From: Amoebophilaceae bacterium
GTDB taxonomy: Bacteria > Bacteroidota > Bacteroidia > Cytophagales > Amoebophilaceae
Assembly: GCA_019744995.1 (NCBI GenBank)
Contig: JAIETQ010000022.1
Location: 3,543-67,542 of the forward strand
Reading direction: 5' to 3'
Length of the DNA: 64,000 nt
The translations under genes were made by a program, and so were the position numbers. The notes under the pieces are model-generated. The model was not told the origin of the DNA. It was given only the letters and a program-made list of their open reading frames with translations, and searched no databases. Of this stretch, positions 1,792 through 38,192 are shown piece after piece (the first letter of the stretch is position 1; each line of letters begins with the position of its first letter).

Positions 1792-1866
1792 GGTGAATGT
1801 AGCTCAGTTGGTTAGAGTATTGGTTTGTGGTACCAAAGGTCGCGGGTTCGAATCCCGTCTTTCACC
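1792..1866 (+). tRNA. tRNA-His (anticodon GUG)
   Basis: Has the extra 5' G(-1) typical of tRNA-His. The anticodon stem is ttggt/accaa with loop ttgtggt, giving GUG. The T-arm is GGTTCGAATCC and the discriminator is C. Confidence 0.85.
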
Positions 1867-7031: not shown

Positions 7032-9863
7032 TTATAGCTTACGTTGGATTTCTTTTTTTTCAAAACCTGCTATAATATCCCCAACTTCTATGGCATCAAA
7101 ATTTTTGATGTGTATACCACATTCTGAAATCGATTTTACTTGTTTTACCTCCTCCAGTCCATGCTTGATGGTACGAATAAAACCAGTAAATACAATCTCT
7201 TCTTTTCTAATAACATGTATAGGATTTAAAAATTTAATAAAACCTGTTTGTACCTGACAACCGGCAATATTACCTACTTTTGAAATAGGAAAAACTTTCT
7301 TGACCTCAGCACGACCAGTAGGAACCTCTTCTATTATAGGCACTAAAAGCCCTTGTAATACCTCACGTATACCATCTATAGCATCGTATATAATGGCATA
7401 CTGCTTAATTAAGACTCCTTCTCTTTCTGCTAATTTCTTTACCTGTGCAGGTAATTTAATATGAAAAGAGATAATCATTGCATCAGAAGCAGAAGCAGAA
7501 GCAAGCAAGACATCAGACTCAGAAACAGCTCCTACACATTTATGTAGTATATTGATTTGTACCTCTTCATGAGATAGCTTAAGTAATGAATCTGCCAATG
7601 CTTCAATCGAACCATCTACATCTCCTTTGATAATCAGATTCAGCTGCTGAAAGTTTCCTACCGCCAACCTACGTCCAATTTCATCTAGTGTAAGATGTGA
7701 TTTAGTACGTAATGTTTGCTCACGTAATAACTGATGCTTCTTCTGCGCAAGATCTGTCGCCTCTTTGATGCTACTCATCACACGAAACGCATCTCCAGCT
7801 CTAGGTGCACCATTCAATCCCAATAACTGAACAGGTGTTGCGGGAAGTGCGTTGTCACGTGCAAGACCTTGATGATTTAACATCGCCTTCACTTTACCGT
7901 AGTAGATACCAGCCAACACAATATCCCCTACACGCAAGGTGCCATCCTGAACCATTACGGTAGATATATACCCTCTACCTGCATCTAGCAATGAGTCGAT
8001 AACCACCCCTTTTGCTTGTCTAGCAGGGACTGCCTTTAACTCTAATAAAGAAGCCTCTAATAAAATCTTTTCTAAAAGGTCATTAACGCCTTGACCGGTT
8101 TTAGCAGAAATTTCTTGACATTGATACTTTCCTCCCCAATCTTCTACTAAGATATTTTGATTGGCTAATGCTTCTTTTACTTTCTCTGGATTAGCTTGAG
8201 GCTTGTCTATTTTATTTATGGCAATGATAATAGGACAACCCGCTACTTGAGCATGGCTAATAGCCTCCTTAGTCTGAACCATAACCCCATCATCTGCAGC
8301 CACTACAATAATAATGATATCGGTCACTTTAGCACCTCTTGTACGCATAGCAGTAAAAGCTTCATGGCCGGGTGTATCTAAGAATACAACCGTCTTTCCA
8401 CTATCTGTAACGATATCATAGGCACCGATATGTTGGGTAATACCCCCTGCCTCTTTTGCGGTTACTTTTGTGGTACGAATATAGTCCAACAAAGAGGTTT
8501 TCCCATGATCAACATGGCCCATAATCGTCACAATAGGTGGACGCTCTACCTGATCACCACTATAATCGGTTTCTTCGACAGGCTCTCCATCGTGGACATC
8601 GACAAAGGCTACATCATAACCGAACTCATCCGCAACAACGGTAATGGTTTCTGCATCTAATCGTTGATTAATAGATACAATCATCCCCATAGAGATACAA
8701 GCAGAAAGTACCTCATTAACAGGAACCCCCATAAAAGATGCCAATTCATTAGCCGAAATAAATTCGGTTATCTTTAAAACTTTTGAGGCTACTTTTTCTT
8801 CTTCTTTACGTTTATCTTCAGCTTCTAAATTAGCCTTACGCCTATCTTTTTTATACTTAGCACGTGTACTATCTCTACCGGCTTCATTATCTTGATTAAG
8901 CTTTACTAGGGTTTGTTTGATTTGTCTTTCTATTTCCTGAGGAGATATGCCTTCTTTATTTTCAACTACTTTTTTGTTAGGATGTTTGTCTTTACCGGTT
9001 AATAGCCCTACTGGTCTAACTGGTCGATTTTTTTTATTAAACCTACCTACATAATTAGAGCCGGTATTTTTTTCGTTACTTTTTTTTACTACCCCTGTTT
9101 TTGAAGGCGTAACCGGAGCATTGGGCTTCCTTAAAGAAGGGGCTAGCAGATCATATTTTTTAGGAGTCGTATCTTTTGAACTCCGGTTAGAGCTATAGTC
9201 TGGCAAAATGACTTTACCTACTACCGTAAGTTTTTTTAAGTCAGCCAAATGATCAAAGGCTATCTTATTGTCTTTAGCCACTGTCTCCTCTGGAGCTATA
9301 GCTTTATCTTCAGGCTTTGCTGGAACTACAGGCTCATTAGCAGGGGGGCTTAACCTAACAGGGAGCTTATCTTCTACAAGAGAAGCCACCTCAGCGGGCT
9401 TATCTACAACCGGTTTAGCCTTAACTATAACTTTTTTAGCGGTCAAATTAACCTTACCAACTGTCTTTAAACCAGGCAAATCAGGAACATCAGAGGGATA
9501 ATCAATGTATGACTTTGACTTGGAAAGGTTTTGATCTGGAACAGGTGGCTCTTCAACCTCTACCGCTAGATTACTTTTTTCTTTTACAGGATCTACAGAA
9601 GTATCTTCTATTTCATTACCACTGACTGGAGCAAAAAGACTGGCATATGTTTTCCCAATGGTAACATGGGCAGCTTCTTGCTTATCCACACCAGATGAGG
9701 TAAATTCTGCAGCAAGTAATTCAAACTGCTGAATGTTTATCTTTGAGTTAGGATTGTTATCAATAACATAACCTTTCTTGGCTAAGAAAGAAACAATGGT
9801 ATCTGTTGCCACATTTAACTTCCTTGCTACTTGGCTAAGTCGCATATTTTTTTCTTTGTTCAT
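7032..9863 (-). CDS. infB: translation initiation factor IF-2
   Basis: 943 aa. GTPase motifs [13 protein letters not shown] and NKID, preceded by a long low-complexity N-terminal region. Lies downstream of nusA as usual. Confidence 0.95.
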
Positions 9864-22013: not shown

Positions 22014-22832
22014 GTGCAAATTTTGCCTAGCTCATCAAATTTAGCTTATCATATGAAAGAAAACAATCTGCTATATCATTTCTTTGTTGATCCAATGTCA
22101 CACGGTATGGCCTGTTTAATACTTGCCTATTTACTAGCCCCTACACAATTTGTAAAAGTAGTCTATCAAGAGACCAAACAGCCTTATTTACATATTATTA
22201 AGCAATATCTAGCCGCGAGAAATTTTAAAATTTTTTTTTCAGGGGCTCGTATGTATGCATTGCGTCAATTTATTGCTGCTTTTGCGTTTGGTATTTCCCA
22301 TTGGTTGTATTTGTTTTCAATTAGTTGTTATGCCATCTCCAATATTGTACTTTTAGTGGTTTGGCAAAGCTTTGTAGTAGCGGTAGTAGAGACAGTTATT
22401 ACTATATATACTGAAATGAAAGAAATTGCTGCCAATAAAGGTGATTTAATGAAACGTAAAGAAGCTATTTCAGCTATCATTACCCCCATCTTTTTAAGAA
22501 ATTTTATTGCTGGCTCAGCACCTGTGTTAGCCTGTGAAGTGAGTAAGCAGTTAGCAGTATATGCAATAGTCAAACAGATGGGGGGTATATGTACCAATAC
22601 AGTGGTATGTATCTTAGTTTCAATTGTAATTTCCACCCTAAGTATACCCTTTGATTTGATTGCTACACAAAATTGTGGTTCAGCCGTACCCATGACTTGG
22701 ATAGGTAGATTACGGCATATTATTATGGTAGAAAAAAAATGCATGGTGCTATTTAATGGATTGGGTATGAGAATCATGCAAATTATTCCTTATTCCATTG
22801 CCCATAGTCTTATTATTTTTTTACTAGATTGA
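22014..22832 (+). CDS. six-TM membrane protein, possible degenerate mitochondrial-carrier-family (MCF)-like transporter
   Basis: 272 aa with apparent three-fold internal repeat structure. Degenerate carrier-like motifs are PTQFVKVVYQ...FFSGA and PFDLIATQ...LFNGLG. Start uncertain (GTG 22014 or ATG 22053). Needs a profile search. Confidence 0.4.
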   Translation: MQILPSSSNLAYHMKENNLLYHFFVDPMSHGMACLILAYLLAPTQFVKVVYQETKQPYLHIIKQYLAARNFKIFFSGARMYALRQFIAAFAFGISHWLYLFSISCYAISNIVLLVVWQSFVVAVVETVITIYTEMKEIAANKGDLMKRKEAISAIITPIFLRNFIAGSAPVLACEVSKQLAVYAIVKQMGGICTNTVVCILVSIVISTLSIPFDLIATQNCGSAVPMTWIGRLRHIIMVEKKCMVLFNGLGMRIMQIIPYSIAHSLIIFLLD

Positions 22833-22850: not shown

Positions 22851-24356
22851 ATGAATGATCATAAAACATCCATCCCTTCTAGGCTTAAAAAGTTTAGTTC
22901 CTTAATTTGGTCTCTTCAGAAGCATGAATTGCCCAAGTTTTTTGCTATGGCCATTTTAATGTTCCTGATTTTACTCAATCAAAACTTGATTAGAGGAATA
23001 AAAGATAGTCTTATTGTAACCATGATAGGTGTACAAGTGATCAGTTTTATCAAACTATTTGTGGAAATGCCAGTTGGTGTTTTTTTTGTAGTGATTTACA
23101 CGATTATGTGCAATAAGATGTCAACAGAAAAAGCTTTTCGTTGTATTTTACTTTTTTTTCTTTCCTTTTTTATTTTATTTTCCTTATTTCTTTTTCCAAA
23201 CCAAGCCTTATTACATCCTAATCCGGATAGAGTGGCTACCTATATTGCGCTTTACCCGCACTTCAAATGGTTTCTTATGATGTGGGGCAAGTGGATATTG
23301 GTACTTTTTTACATCATGGGTGAGCTCTGGCCTATGATTATTTTCACCCTTTTATATTGGCAGTTGGCCAATAAAATAACCAAACTAGAAGAGGCTGGTC
23401 GATTTTATTTTTTGTTCAACCTAGTTGGACAAAGTAATTTATTGATTTCTAGTAGTATCATGATCTATTTTTCTTCGAGCAACCATTTTTTATACCCACT
23501 TTTAAGTAAGTATAGAGCAGCTGCAGGACTAACCATATCCTCTATTATGGCAATTGTAGTCATGCTTTCTGTTTTTATTTTGCTTATGCATGGTTATATT
23601 GAAAAGTACATTATGTACGATCAGGTGATATCAACGGCAACTCCTAAGCAAAGCAGGTTACAATTGAGCCTATGGGAGAGTATTAAGACCGTTTCAAAAT
23701 CCCATTATTTAGGACTTATTTGCCTATTGATGATTGCTTACTCTATGGTATTGGGTTTAGTAGAGGGACTCTGGTTGCATGAAGCCAATCTGTTGTACCG
23801 TAATGATTCCTCTTGTTTTATGATTTACCAAGGCAAGGTGCTCTTTTGGATAGGTTTTACTACCCTTATTTGCTCTTTTTTAGGTAATCATGTCATTCGA
23901 AAATTAGGGTGGACGGGTACTGCATTATTAACCCCTGTTGTAACAGCTATCATTGGTTCTTGTTTTTTTTTACTGGTCATTACCCATTATTTTAATATCT
24001 TACCCACAACCTTAATGGGTATACCCTCTTTAGCCATTGTTGTGGCTATAGGCAGTTTACAAAATATTCTAATAAAAGGGACTAAGTACTGTTTTTTTGA
24101 TATCACTAAAGAAATGGCCTATATCCCATTAAATAATGAAATGCGTACAAAAGGTAAAGCGGCAGTTGATATATTAGGAGGCAAAATAGGTAAATCATCT
24201 GGAGCTATTGTACAGGTTATTTTTTATACGATTTTTTCTGATGCCAAACCTGATCAATTGGCTCCATTTTTAATGGTTATGTTTCTTTTAATAGCTATCA
24301 TTTGGATTGTGTCTACTAAAAAACTTGCCCAGGAATACCATAAACTCACGCAATAG
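22851..24356 (+). CDS. tlc: ATP/ADP translocase (nucleotide transport protein, Tlc/NTT family)
   Basis: 501 aa. The N-terminal half is colinear with Rickettsia/Chlamydia Tlc as I recall it (W....HE..KF...A.LMF.IL.N....R..KDSL.VT..G, YP.FKWF...GKW, ELW....F.LL.WQ.AN.ITK.EEA.RFY). Confidence 0.85.
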   Translation: MNDHKTSIPSRLKKFSSLIWSLQKHELPKFFAMAILMFLILLNQNLIRGIKDSLIVTMIGVQVISFIKLFVEMPVGVFFVVIYTIMCNKMSTEKAFRCILLFFLSFFILFSLFLFPNQALLHPNPDRVATYIALYPHFKWFLMMWGKWILVLFYIMGELWPMIIFTLLYWQLANKITKLEEAGRFYFLFNLVGQSNLLISSSIMIYFSSSNHFLYPLLSKYRAAAGLTISSIMAIVVMLSVFILLMHGYIEKYIMYDQVISTATPKQSRLQLSLWESIKTVSKSHYLGLICLLMIAYSMVLGLVEGLWLHEANLLYRNDSSCFMIYQGKVLFWIGFTTLICSFLGNHVIRKLGWTGTALLTPVVTAIIGSCFFLLVITHYFNILPTTLMGIPSLAIVVAIGSLQNILIKGTKYCFFDITKEMAYIPLNNEMRTKGKAAVDILGGKIGKSSGAIVQVIFYTIFSDAKPDQLAPFLMVMFLLIAIIWIVSTKKLAQEYHKLTQ

Positions 24357-24721: not shown

Positions 24722-24741
24722 TGAGCTCTTTGATAAAATCT

Positions 24742-25533
24742 ATCAAGGTAGGTAGGCCCTCGCGGGCTTGCCTCCTCACACCACCGTACGTACGGGTCCG
24801 TATACGGCGGTTCAATTAGTTAACTGTTTCACCAAAGATTTTAAGCCTATGGTTGCCAAGTAGGTATTGTCTAGCGCCATATGTATTGTTCTACTATGGC
24901 TCAACCGCCATATTCCTTTTGAACTATATGCAGTTTGTTTGGCTGTAATAGTTGGGATTCCCCTTTCTATCAGACCTTTATATCGTCCAGAATATTTCTT
25001 CCATTGTTAATCTCGTTATAGATAATTCATTTCCCATGGTATCTTACGTACAGGCTTCACCTGACGCGTTCTTTACCTGGCTCGTTTCGACCTTCAAATG
25101 CTCTTTATCCATATGGTATAGTTCTTATTTTGTTTGCTAATTCTTCGGGCCTTCAGGGTTTTTTTTCCCTACTATGCCTTCTGCTGACTTCTATAACACG
25201 GTCGGTTCCTTCTCAGGTTCCCAGTTTTTTCGTAATTCCAAACAACATGTTATAGATCTCCCAGGGTAAGGTACATATCCTTCACTGCACAACTGTCAGA
25301 TATACGTTATTGCCTATTGGCGATAAGGGACTGCGTGTTCAAAAGCACACTCGTCCAGACAATCACGCCTCGTATCTGCTGCTTGTTCATCAGCTCGCAG
25401 TTTTGTTACACACTTCCTTCAGACTATCTCTCACGATTTAGCCCTTGTGTTTCACTAATCCTTCGGCTCGCCAGCCTGGATAAGGGACTTGCACCCTCGA
25501 GATATGTACCATGCCTGGCACACTTTTTCCATA
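24742..25533 (-). mobile_element. ORF-less group II intron (about 790 nt)
   Basis: On the minus strand the 5' end is GTGTGCCAGGCATGG..GGTGCAAGTCCC..GTGAAA..CTGAAGGAAG. Domain V is CCGCCGTAT-ACGGACCCGT-AC-GTACGGTGG (24781-24810) with a CGC triad and a 2-nt bulge. Domain VI is a GNRA-capped stem with a bulged A near 24749. The 3' end is ..GAT near 24742 (plus or minus a few nt). There is no intron-encoded protein ORF. Confidence 0.7.
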
Positions 25534-25687
25534 CTTTTTTTGCGGTCAAAAAAAGCATGAGGCCTGACCGGCGAGGTCGTTTACAGGGATAAAATATGAT
25601 ATTTATAGGTAAGGTTTGCTTGCTATAGATCGGTATAATTGCTATACTTAGTAAGTTATCTCTATATACATTACTTATTATTACATC

Positions 25688-26500
25688 ATGAACTTAAAAT
25701 TAAACAATCCACTTGCTTTTTTAGATTTAGAAACTACAGGTACTGATATCGTACGCGATCGTATCATAGAAATTGCTATTATTAAATTAATGCCCGATGG
25801 AACACGCTTAACGTGGGAAAAAAGAATTCATCCAGAAATAGAAATTCCTAGAGAAGCTAGCCTAATCCATGGCATTTATGATGAAGATATCAAAGACCGA
25901 CCAACTTTTAAACAAATAGCCAAAGAGCTGATGGCTTTTTTAAAAGGAGCAGACTTAGCCGGGTTTAACCTGCTGCGTTTTGATATTCCTATGTTGATAG
26001 AAAGCTTTTTACGTTCAGAATTGGATTTTAAGCTTGACAATAGAAACATTATAGACGTGCAAAAGATTTTCCATTTAATGGAAAAAAGAACCTTAAAAGC
26101 AGCTTATCTATTTTATTGCCAAAAGGAGCTCTCCAATGCACACAACGCCATGGCAGACACAGAAGCTACCTTAGATGTACTGGTAGAACAGGTAAAAAAG
26201 TATGAAGATCAAACAGTTATAGATGCCTTAGGAAATGTTATAGGAACTGTAAAAAATGATGTAAAAACACTACACCAGCTGACCCATACTAAAATGATTG
26301 ATTTTGCAAACAGACTGATCTATAATGACCAAAATGTACCTATCTTTAATTTTGGTAAACATAAGGGCAGGGCGGTATCAGAAGTACTCAAAACAGAGCC
26401 AACCTATTATAATTGGATGATTCAAGGGGATTTTTCATTGGATACCAAACGTAAATTAACCCAAATTAAAATGGGTGTCATGTCAATGGTTGAGCTTTGA
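25688..26500 (+). CDS. DEDD-family 3'-5' exonuclease (DnaQ / Pol III epsilon-like)
   Basis: Exo I motif FLDLETTG. The later H..MAD motif is DEDDh style. 270 aa with a C-terminal extension. Confidence 0.75.
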   Translation: MNLKLNNPLAFLDLETTGTDIVRDRIIEIAIIKLMPDGTRLTWEKRIHPEIEIPREASLIHGIYDEDIKDRPTFKQIAKELMAFLKGADLAGFNLLRFDIPMLIESFLRSELDFKLDNRNIIDVQKIFHLMEKRTLKAAYLFYCQKELSNAHNAMADTEATLDVLVEQVKKYEDQTVIDALGNVIGTVKNDVKTLHQLTHTKMIDFANRLIYNDQNVPIFNFGKHKGRAVSEVLKTEPTYYNWMIQGDFSLDTKRKLTQIKMGVMSMVEL

Positions 26501-28695
26501 ATGCCTCCTTTGTAGATGTGGTGCTGCCTTTACCCTTACATACCTTAACTTATCAGATCCCATCGATTTATGAAGGTAAGTTAAGTGTAGGTAGTGGCGT
26601 ATTGGTTGCTTTACGGAGCAAACCTATACTAGCTATTGTGGTCAGGATGCATACCCAACCACCTCCCTATGCTACAAAACCACTACTGGGTATACTGTAT
26701 GAAACCCCTATACTTGATGTTCAGCAATTGAAATTTCTACAATGGATAGCCCATTACTACTTGTCCTCTTTTGGTGAAACCTTAGCAGTTGCCCTGCCTA
26801 AGGCATTGGGTTTATCTCATAACATTGTGTTTAAACCCAGTAGCCTCAGTAGCCAAACTCCAAAAGAGGAAAAAGAGGTCTTCCTGCTCCAGGCTTTATA
26901 TCTAAAACCCTTAACCTATAGCGCCATCAAACGATTATTGGGTAAAAAAGAAACCAATAAAGTGTTATTGCACCTATTGGAACAAAGTGATATAAAAGCT
27001 CATGCCACAACCATAACCTCTACATCTTATATTGCTCATAAGCAGAAATCCCCTATCCTATTTCCTCTAACGGAAATACAACAAAAGGTACTAGAGGAGC
27101 TTCAAAAGATCTTTGCTAAAAAAGAGGTGGTGTTACTTCACGGGGCTATAGGTAGTGGCAAAACAGTGTTGTATATGCATTGTATACAAGAAGCCTGGCA
27201 ACAACAAAAACAAGTGCTTTTGCTTTTACCAGAAATAGGATTAGCTACCCATATCATGGAACGGATCTATCCATTCTTTGGGGAACATATCGTAGTCTAT
27301 CATTCTAAAAAATCCCATAAAGAACGTTTAAAAATCTGGTTGCAGGTAGCTGCAGCACAACCTTTAATCGTTATAGGTACACGATCGGCACTTTTTTTAC
27401 CTTTTAAACAGTTAAAACTTATTATTATAGATGAAGAGCATGATGCTTCCTATAAACACAGCGACAACCATCCAACCTACCATGCAAGAGAGGCTAGCAT
27501 TATATTAGCCCAGCAACACAAAGCAAAAGTGTTACTGGGTTCAGCTACGCCTGCTATAGAAACCTATTACAATGCCCAGGAGGGAAAATATGGATGGGTA
27601 ACCTTAACGGATAGATTTGGCAAAGCTCAGCCGCCAATATTATCTTTTATTGACCTTACTATAGATAAAAAAAGAAACGCTTTACGAGAAAATTTCTCTT
27701 TTACCCTACTAGATGCCATTAAAAACACGGTAAATTTGGGTAAGCAAGTGATCATCTTTCAAAACCGAAGAGGGTATGCGCAATATTTTTTATGTGCATC
27801 TTGTGGATGGATTCCCCATTGTCTTAACTGTTCCGTTGGTTTAACCTATCATCAATCATCCAATGAGCTGCTTTGTCATTACTGTGGCTATACGGCTCCA
27901 ACTTTTTTGCACTGTAGTTGTTGTGGATCTAGTGGGCTGCATAATGTAGGCTTTGGTACAGAAAAACTAGAAGAAACGCTACAACTTACCTTTCCCAAGC
28001 AAACCGTGGGCCGTATGGATTTAGATAGCACCAAAAGTAAAAATGGCTACAAAACGCTTTTAAAGCAACTATCTTCTGGCTCTATAGCTATTTTAGTAGG
28101 CACACAGATCATTGCAAAAGGATTAGATCTCTCCAATATCCATTTGGTAGGTGTATTGGATATAGATAGATTGCTCCATTTTCCAGATTTTAGATCTAAT
28201 GAAAAATGCTTTCAACTGATGGCTCAGTTGGCAGGCAGAGCAGGCAGAAGGGATGAACAAGGTAGGGTATTGATTCAAACCAGGCAGCCCAACCATCCTA
28301 TATTTCAATACCTCTCCAATCATGACTACCCAGGTATGTATGCATCCGAATTAAAAGAAAGAAAAAATTTTCTATACCCTCCTTATGTTAGAATGGTCCA
28401 TTTACGCTTGAGTTGTCCCACAGAAGCGATTGTACAATCAGGAGCCTTGAAACTAAAAGAAGCTTTAGAAAAAAAATTCCAAGATAAAACCCAAGGGCGT
28501 GTGCTGGGGCCTCAACAGCCCGTAGTGGGTAAAATTAGAAACTTATTTTTATTGAATATACTGGTAAAGATCCCTATTAAAAAGATGCATGAATTAGCTT
28601 TAGTCAAAGCATCTATACAAAAGATAACGCAACAAGTGTTACAGGAAAAAGCTTATCGGACGATTAAGGTGCTATTTGATGTGGATCCTATATAA
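26497..28695 (+). CDS. priA: primosomal protein N' (replication restart helicase PriA)
   Basis: Walker A GAIGSGKT, the DEEH box, and a Cys-rich zinc-binding region (CASCGW...CLNC...CHYCG). TTG start overlapping the upstream gene's stop. Confidence 0.9.
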   Translation: MNASFVDVVLPLPLHTLTYQIPSIYEGKLSVGSGVLVALRSKPILAIVVRMHTQPPPYATKPLLGILYETPILDVQQLKFLQWIAHYYLSSFGETLAVALPKALGLSHNIVFKPSSLSSQTPKEEKEVFLLQALYLKPLTYSAIKRLLGKKETNKVLLHLLEQSDIKAHATTITSTSYIAHKQKSPILFPLTEIQQKVLEELQKIFAKKEVVLLHGAIGSGKTVLYMHCIQEAWQQQKQVLLLLPEIGLATHIMERIYPFFGEHIVVYHSKKSHKERLKIWLQVAAAQPLIVIGTRSALFLPFKQLKLIIIDEEHDASYKHSDNHPTYHAREASIILAQQHKAKVLLGSATPAIETYYNAQEGKYGWVTLTDRFGKAQPPILSFIDLTIDKKRNALRENFSFTLLDAIKNTVNLGKQVIIFQNRRGYAQYFLCASCGWIPHCLNCSVGLTYHQSSNELLCHYCGYTAPTFLHCSCCGSSGLHNVGFGTEKLEETLQLTFPKQTVGRMDLDSTKSKNGYKTLLKQLSSGSIAILVGTQIIAKGLDLSNIHLVGVLDIDRLLHFPDFRSNEKCFQLMAQLAGRAGRRDEQGRVLIQTRQPNHPIFQYLSNHDYPGMYASELKERKNFLYPPYVRMVHLRLSCPTEAIVQSGALKLKEALEKKFQDKTQGRVLGPQQPVVGKIRNLFLLNILVKIPIKKMHELALVKASIQKITQQVLQEKAYRTIKVLFDVDPI

Positions 28696-38079: not shown

Positions 38080-38192
38080 AAAATCAGCGATAAGCGTACA
38101 TCCACAAAGAGCCGTATAATGCGAGAGTATCACGTACGGTTCCGTGAGCAGTTGAAGGTTTTAGTAAGTACGATGAGCTTCATTCTTTTATA
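38080..38192 (+). mobile_element. group II intron 3' fragment (domains V-VI only)
   Basis: Near-consensus domain V GAGCCGTATAATGCGAGAGTATCACGTACGGTTC at 38109-38142 (AGC triad, GAGA loop). Upstream sequence is AT-rich and not intron-like, so this is a truncated remnant. Confidence 0.6.

Follow-up and report, generated by a model that had tools for sequence, protein, structure and literature searches.

A stretch of 64 kb from an Amoebophilaceae bacterium (the window, to which all coordinates below refer) carries on its minus strand, at 25523-24742, a complete group II ribozyme of 782 nt, which starts with GUGUG and ends in ...GAU. The element is a bacterial class C (IIC) intron. No intact reverse transcriptase/maturase ORF is present in its domain IV, where 22 N-terminal and 64 C-terminal codons are all that remains of the protein gene. 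We propose, with a probability of roughly 85%, that a class C intron inserted here under the guidance of a hairpin, then lost its protein gene in place, and survives as a structurally intact, non-autonomous ribozyme. It is, in other words, most likely a stranded copy whose ORF was lost at the site that it now occupies. The first-pass annotation of this DNA had proposed an ORF-less bacterial group II intron, and both the Rfam models and the covariation described below support that proposal.

Identity and boundaries of the intron

All 64 kb of the window were scanned with Rfam at the curated gathering thresholds, and three collinear group II models matched on the minus strand. These are RF02001 (group-II-D1D4-3, domain I) at 25440-25271, with 127.4 bits (E 7e-26) over the full model (1-170); RF01998 (group-II-D1D4-1, domains II-III) at 25221-25148, with 44.7 bits, which is above its gathering threshold; and RF00029 (domains V-VI) at 24812-24742, with 46 bits against a threshold of 40. 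The models are independent, their E-values are 7e-26, 8e-5, and 7e-6, and their order and strand are correct, such that the covariance-model check suggested in the first-pass annotation returns significant matches to domains I, II-III, and V-VI alike. The group II layout is recognizable from end to end, with a GUGYG 5' end, domains I-III, domain V, domain VI with its bulged A, and an AY end. The minus-strand motifs singled out earlier are likewise all present, far above chance: GGTGCAAGTCCC lies at intron positions 29-40, GTGAAA at 69-74, and CTGAAGGAAG at 102-111. Compared with shuffled sequences, the fold of the whole intron has a minimum free energy z of -4.6.

Both splice sites are fixed by the covariation of EBS1 with IBS1 and of EBS3 with IBS3, which is presented below. 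The GUGUG 5' end had been correctly noted, along with a start at 25533 and a length of about 790 nt; the start is instead at 25523, the length is 782 nt, and the 10 bases between the two positions (TATGGAAAAA) belong to the 5' exon.

Relatives of the intron

Relatives were gathered from a genome collection by exact match to the 30-nt domain V. The identical 30-mer occurs in more than 119 genomic stretches from many phyla, the hosts among the matches listed including Alphaproteobacteria, Acidobacteriota, Bacillota, Bacteroidota, Planctomycetota, and others. About 50 loci among these listed matches include the intron 5' end. An alignment of domains I-III was built from 34 sequences, and the introns of 33 relatives were used for the exon-pairing and hairpin-spacing counts. 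Among the matches listed, domain I of the window intron is about 70% identical to that of some 50 introns, and in most relatives the distance from the 5' end to domain V is 1.8-1.87 kb, as against 713 nt in the window intron. The proteins encoded by the relatives are about 462 aa long and combine the RVT_1 and GIIM domains (Pfam), with the endonuclease domain being absent. At two of the related loci, L049:5053-5130 and L021 (minus strand, ~7750-7830), a class C intron starts right after the GAU end of another copy, an arrangement that represents tandem intron-after-intron insertion.

Architecture of the ribozyme

RNAalifold applied to the 34 sequences yields 94 consensus pairs in domains I-III, with compensatory changes in 73 of them. 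The window intron keeps 87 of the 94, and relatives that still encode a protein are similar in this respect (87 in L012 and 85 in L103). Four of the seven missed pairs are in domain II and, judged against the Rfam alignment, look like a local misalignment. In a domain I hairpin with a GNRA cap (25438-25423), A-A and A-G take the place of two further pairs, and these two non-canonical pairs count against reading the ribozyme as intact.

Domain I (25518-25261), delineated by RF02001 and the RNAalifold consensus, is closed by a helix between intron positions 6-10 and 259-263. Inside it lies the AGGAA-containing motif CUGAAGGAAG (25422-25413); in the slightly longer segment UCUGAAGGAAG (25423-25413), which holds this AGGAA, most columns either do not vary among the 34 sequences or are conserved to 90% or more. 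Domain II (25260-25186) is formed by a consensus helix between alignment columns 306 and 400 that shows compensatory changes, and RF01998 spans its 3' part. Domain III (25178-25148), supported by RF01998 and the RNAalifold consensus, is preceded by the J2/3 sequence AGAAGUCAGCAGA. Domains I-III together occupy 376 nt. They are followed by domain IV (25147-24811), of about 337 nt, with a basal stem AAUUAG/CUAAUU (25142-25137/24819-24814).

Domain V, matched by RF00029, reads CCGCCGUAU-ACG-GACC-CGU-AC-GUACGGUGG. Its 30 nt comprise a CCGCCGUAU/GUACGGUGG basal helix that contains a CGC triad, a 2-nt AC bulge, a 3-bp distal stem, and a GACC loop. The first-pass annotation had described it with precision, placing it at exactly 24810-24781 with the CGC triad, the AC bulge, and a short upper stem. 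Its account of domain VI, as a GNRA-capped stem with a bulged A about 7 nt before the 3' end, is equally accurate. In detail, domain VI (24777-24745) has a GAGG/CCUU base, followed by the bulged A at 24749, an AGG/CCU helix, and a distal GCCC/GGGC helix under a GCGA loop, and the bulged A is 7 nt from the ...GAU end. The two basal helices, which flank this A, covary in a set of 23 distinct domain VI sequences, with variants such as GACA/UGUC, GAGA/UCUC, GGCA/UGCC, GGGA/UCCC, and GAG/CUC. Support from homologous copies for the pairings proposed earlier in domains V and VI is therefore of two kinds, namely, covariation in the basal pairs of domain VI and, for domain V, which is invariant by ascertainment, the Rfam match. 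As modeled, the RNA is predicted to have every structural element that catalysis requires.

Assignment to class C

The traits that distinguish class C, as set out by Toor et al. in 2006, are a small size, a CGC rather than an AGC triad, a domain V distal stem shorter by 2 bp, an AGGAA bulge, an EBS3 like that of IIB introns, an EBS1-IBS1 pairing of 3-4 bp, and the absence of EBS2; their target has a terminator stem-loop or another inverted repeat in place of IBS2 (PMC1702495). The window intron displays the CGC triad, a domain V distal stem of 3 bp, AGGAA, a 4-bp EBS1-IBS1 and a 1-bp EBS3-IBS3 pairing, and a stem-loop target. The CGC triad, the shortened domain V, and the presence of a hairpin ahead of the intron all follow from class C membership.

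Several parallels are offered by two class C introns, B.h.I1 from Bacillus halodurans and O.i.I1 from Oceanobacillus iheyensis. They have in common with the window intron the CGC triad, the short domain V, AGGAA, an EBS1-IBS1 of 3-4 bp, a single-base EBS3-IBS3, a small ribozyme, and insertion a few nucleotides past a stem-loop, and the RVT_1-GIIM composition of class C proteins, without an endonuclease, is the same in the relatives of the window intron. The 5' end and domain V are also, we presume, similar to those of O.i.I1. The window intron differs from both in having no intact protein gene, in its target, which is an A/T-only palindrome with GAAAAA after it and not a terminator that is rich in G+C and has a U-run, and in residing in an A+T-rich intracellular member of the Bacteroidota rather than in a free-living relative of Bacillus.

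Exon recognition and the upstream hairpin

EBS1 (UUUU, 25344-25341) consists of the four bases that follow GC in GCUUUUGA, the terminal loop of one of the hairpins in domain I. All four pair with IBS1 (AAAA, 25527-25524), the last 4 nt of the 5' exon, and across the alignment the loop bases of each intron complement the four bases with which its own 5' exon ends. In the 33 introns, 109 of 132 positions pair, compared with 56.7 +/- 5.3 upon permutation, and none of 10,000 permutations reaches 109. EBS3 (U at 25302; intron position 222, alignment column 250) pairs with IBS3 (A at 24741), the first base of the 3' exon. This pairing is Watson-Crick in 28 of the 33 introns; the U of the window is rare, being found in one other row, and stands opposite an A that is unique. 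By virtue of this covariation, the insertion site of the intron can be said to match its own guide sequences.

The 5' exon contains a hairpin with an A/T-rich stem, CATGCTTTTTTT-GACCGC-AAAAAAAGTATG (25558-25529), with 13 predicted pairs, one of them G-T. A DNA fold of 86 nt containing it has a free energy of -12 kcal/mol (z = -2.7). A second fold adds one closing pair, in which case the hairpin ends 6 nt upstream of the intron; this gap is precisely the median of the 33 relatives (range, 0-10 nt). The hairpin occupies the position of IBS2. An A/T stem-loop upstream of the intron had been recognized in the first-pass annotation, although placed at about 25541-25562. A search for a second copy of the hairpin in the 64-kb window found none. 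Nor was a canonical terminator found at the insertion site, and the hairpin is best described as the "other inverted repeat" type of target, an unusual one in that its stem is A/T-only and GAAAAA, not a U-run, comes after it. Exon ligation by B.h.I1 in vitro was abolished when the stem-loop was poor and had no U-run (PMC1702495); hence, the A/T hairpin of the window, itself lacking a U-run, counts against a reading in which the intron is competent to splice.

Remnants of the protein gene in domain IV

The first-pass annotation was correct that no reverse transcriptase/maturase ORF is present, but it attributed this to a tiny domain IV with no room for one. At about 337 nt, domain IV still contains pieces of the gene for the intron-encoded protein, and the ORF is missing through an internal deletion whose edges are still visible. 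The N-terminal remnant (25112-25044; MDKEHLKVETSQVKNASGEACT) begins with an ATG at 25112 and stops just past a GGUGAAGCC motif (25061-25053). It resembles the M..DK.Q.N....GEA start of the relatives' proteins, with GGUGAAGCC encoding the GEA tripeptide. The C-terminal remnant (25006-24812; QWKKYSGRYKGL...IGLKSLVKQLTN) is an open frame comprising the last 64 codons and the stop. In a blastx comparison, intron positions 518-709 (25006-24815) match residues ~400-462 of the relatives' proteins at 35-45% identity (E 2e-10). Two stops are found in the 15 codons ahead of this remnant, and its frame is open in only 127 of 20,000 shuffles; no Pfam domain is left in it. The sequence at the deletion junction is GAAGCCTGTACGTAAGATACC. 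Since both ends of the protein are found in domain IV, a single internal deletion of about 1.1 kb (codons ~23 to ~400) explains the ORF-less state, and the fact that the 64-codon remnant is still open suggests that this deletion is probably not ancient.

At least six of the ~50 relatives among the matches listed are also ORF-less (L101, L037, L117, L024, L084, and L092), and these come from different phyla. They are like the window intron in their identical domain V, homologous domains I-III (~66-72% identity in domain I), upstream hairpin, and reduced domain IV. They differ in being shorter (620-650 nt in total versus 782 nt, with 550-576 nt from the 5' end to domain V), in having less of the 3' end of the ORF left, and in belonging to other phyla. 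The GGUGAAGCC motif, at intron positions ~460-477, recurs at the same position in five of the six, where it takes the form GGGTGAA(G/T)CC about 100 nt into domain IV; the sixth, L024, has the variant GGGTGATGCC. Conservation of this motif is plausibly a sign that domain IV has kept its 5' part, where a maturase might well bind.

In a separate observation on the C-terminal remnant, three very large proteins (P0001, P0005, and P0008; 2.0-2.9 kaa) each match its residues 16-52 or 16-54 in 5-8 stretches.

Genomic context and host

The intron is intergenic, being located between a divergently transcribed exonuclease gene and a relE-like gene. The latter (24722-24398, minus strand; PF06296 RelE, 36.2 bits) has its ATG at 24722, 19 nt past the intron, and a TAG at codon 14. 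The toxin gene previously placed about 20 nt downstream is therefore indeed there, as a relE-like gene at 19 nt, but the in-frame stop at codon 14 makes it a pseudogene. Between it and the convergent TLC gene there are just 41 nt, which leaves no space for an antitoxin partner gene; the relE-like gene is probably a dead, orphan toxin gene. A scan for sigma-70-like promoters, which does not cover those of Bacteroidota, found none on the minus strand. With the intron in an intergenic position, the host has no evident need of its splicing.

The exonuclease gene has its nearest named homologues in Cardinium endosymbionts (73-77% identity) and in a metagenome-assembled genome (MAG) of the Amoebophilaceae. 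Together with the G+C content of the window (36.8%) and the presence of a TLC ATP/ADP translocase, these homologues identify the host as an intracellular member of the Amoebophilaceae. The translocase gene (22851-24356, plus strand; 448 bits) is directly preceded by an ORF (22014-22832, plus strand) with a weak match to the mitochondrial carrier family (Mito_carr, E 1.8e-5), a pairing that hints at an intracellular bacterium living as an energy parasite. An exact-protein look-up of the spurious ORFs of the intron, TLC, and the relE fragment returned no record. A paper on the mobile elements of Amoebophilus asiaticus leaves introns unmentioned. Elsewhere in the window are two tRNA genes, at 392-464 and 1793-1866 (both plus strand; Rfam RF00005, 70.8 and 66.2 bits), and an unrelated second domain V-VI match (38107-38183, plus strand; RF00029, 45 bits), which has an AGC triad and sits in an intergenic gap of 260 nt. 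Upstream of it, even at E <= 1, no match to domains I-IV was found, and it has the look of a 3' stub left by a further intron, most of which has been deleted.

Of the related contigs, the closest is L121, from an ENA metagenome (89% DNA identity). Its collinearity with the window starts at 25615 (L121:1346) and is limited to the sequence on the right, which includes the exonuclease gene and priA. The other side of L121 is unrelated to the hairpin, the intron, relE, or TLC, with the divergence beginning 92 nt upstream of the intron. This break means that the intron adjoins a break in synteny, and the restricted collinearity means that L121 affords no comparison of a filled with an empty site; no empty site was recovered, L121 being the nearest approach. 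A Logan contig (L001, from SRR15085119) is 100% identical to window positions 25561-27568 and ends 3 nt short of the hairpin; a repeat, the palindrome itself, or low coverage is a possible cause of its ending there.

Proposed history and present state of the intron

Taking the anatomy of the element as a guide, we envisage an ancestor of about 1.9 kb, composed of the ribozyme and a ~460-aa protein with reverse transcriptase and maturase domains and no endonuclease. It would have inserted a few bases past a DNA stem-loop, guided by the 4-bp EBS1-IBS1 and the 1-bp EBS3-IBS3 pairings. A single internal deletion in domain IV would then have removed codons ~23 to ~400, with the 5' part of domain IV (from the start codon to GGUGAAGCC) and the last 64 codons left over. 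A transcript of the minus strand, if made, would be expected to fold and to pair its UUUU with the AAAA of the exon, upon which the 5' junction would be cleaved, either by hydrolysis, the usual protein-free route in this class, or by branching at A24749 with a maturase bound. Exon ligation would join ...GUAUGGAAAAA to AGAUUUUAUC...; the predicted spliced exon junction thus runs from ...GTATGGAAAAA to AGATTTTATC....

Having no maturase or reverse transcriptase of its own, the intron is immobile by itself. In vitro, hydrolysis is the main route by which class C introns splice themselves, and they branch efficiently only with the help of their protein (PMC4748821, PMC1702495). Given this hydrolytic splicing and the poor stem-loop of the 5' exon, splicing in the cell without a maturase supplied in trans is doubtful, and by analogy with the class the intron probably splices poorly there unless a related protein acts in trans. 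The two alternatives named in the first-pass annotation, a trans-supplied maturase or an immobile relic, remain the right ones.

An unlikely alternative that nonetheless deserves consideration is that the intron arrived already ORF-less, as a mini-intron mobilized by a related full-length intron at another genomic locus, which would supply the reverse transcriptase/maturase. The match of EBS1 (4/4) and EBS3 to the window site would agree with this, but it is equally expected if a full-length intron inserted and the deletion came later. Retention of domain IV from its 5' side as far as GGUGAAGCC, here and in five of the six ORF-less relatives (with GGGTGATGCC in the sixth), is what one would expect if a protein-binding site had to stay; ORF-less introns in multiple copies with a full-length partner have been described for B.c.I7 (PMC2504315); and the Logan contig from the same organism, which stops 3 nt short of the hairpin, could mean a repeat. 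On the other side of the ledger, blastn of the intron against the 64-kb window finds only itself, and tblastn with the relatives' proteins finds reverse transcriptase-like sequence nowhere else in it. In a word-indexed collection of 5.8 billion proteins, none has as many as three 5-residue words in common with the 64-aa remnant, and a HMMER search of 1.84 billion cluster representatives gives 72 matches to it, mostly short fragments, of which the best is 55% identical. In a metagenome collection the deletion junction has 0 matches and a protein-guided scan for the remnant gives 600 pattern matches, none of them confirmed. In the search for a full-length parent, viral contigs scanned with the base of domain VI gave 0 matches.

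The preferred reading, loss of the ORF in place, also has to be set against proposals in which no protein is needed. We see a slim chance that the ribozyme is maintained on its own, as an ORF-less class C intron in an endosymbiont whose reduced genome encodes no cognate reverse transcriptase or maturase, and that it splices alone or with a host factor; if true, bacteria would have a second such case after C.te.I1, and class C its first. Slimmer still is the prospect of a protein-independent ribozyme maintained by selection, be it for self-splicing, as proposed for C.te.I1, or for gating the relE-like gene. The full preservation of the structure despite the loss of the ORF, the position of the intron 19 nt upstream of a gene start, and the one bacterial precedent (C.te.I1; PMC4424553) speak for it. 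That gene, though, is a pseudogene without an antitoxin partner, class C introns splice poorly and hydrolytically without protein (PMC4748821, PMC1702495), and the ORF remnant is still open, a sign more of recent deletion than of long upkeep. Finally, membership in another group II class (IIB-like D/E/F, or IIA) or a chance resemblance, which has nothing past the generic GUGYG start and domain V-VI shape in its favor, is a negligible prospect, already refuted by the Rfam and class C tests, i.e., by the E-values of the three models, the CGC triad, 30-nt domain V, short EBS1, and hairpin target, and the ~70% domain I identity to ~50 introns among the matches listed, whose proteins have no endonuclease domain.

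Comparison with known ORF-less introns and implications

ORF-less introns have been called rare in bacteria and are described as usually accompanying a related protein-coding copy (PMC4424553). A close parallel is found in the B.c.I7 copies on pE33L466 of Bacillus cereus E33L, which likewise show an internal deletion, with both ends of the ORF left and the ribozyme intact; they differ in not being class C, in existing as several near-identical copies, and in having a full-length partner in the genome (PMC2504315). The window intron, in comparison, is a single copy within the 64 kb, has no partner there, and has far more of its ORF left (69 + 195 nt). Two known fates of bacterial ORF-less introns are exemplified by C.te.I1 of Clostridium tetani, which is self-sufficient with no protein in the genome (PMC4424553), and by the dnaN introns of Trichodesmium, which are spliced by the maturase of a related intron (PMC12584367). 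Both of these interrupt genes and are not class C, whereas the window intron is intergenic.

ORF-less deletion derivatives of group II introns have thus already been described, and the window intron is one more natural example, from class C. It opens no new mechanism, and its interest is modest in that regard. For the annotation of this genome, the gain is an explanation of 782 "intergenic" bases and the recognition that the flanking relE-like gene is probably dead. More generally, it provides a clean case of a group II retroelement turning non-autonomous, in which a deletion takes the protein gene and spares the ribozyme along with the 5' part of domain IV. As at least six of the ~50 class C relatives among the matches listed are ORF-less too, surveys that depend on reverse transcriptase ORFs may undercount such derivatives, and ORF-less class C introns may be commoner than those surveys imply.
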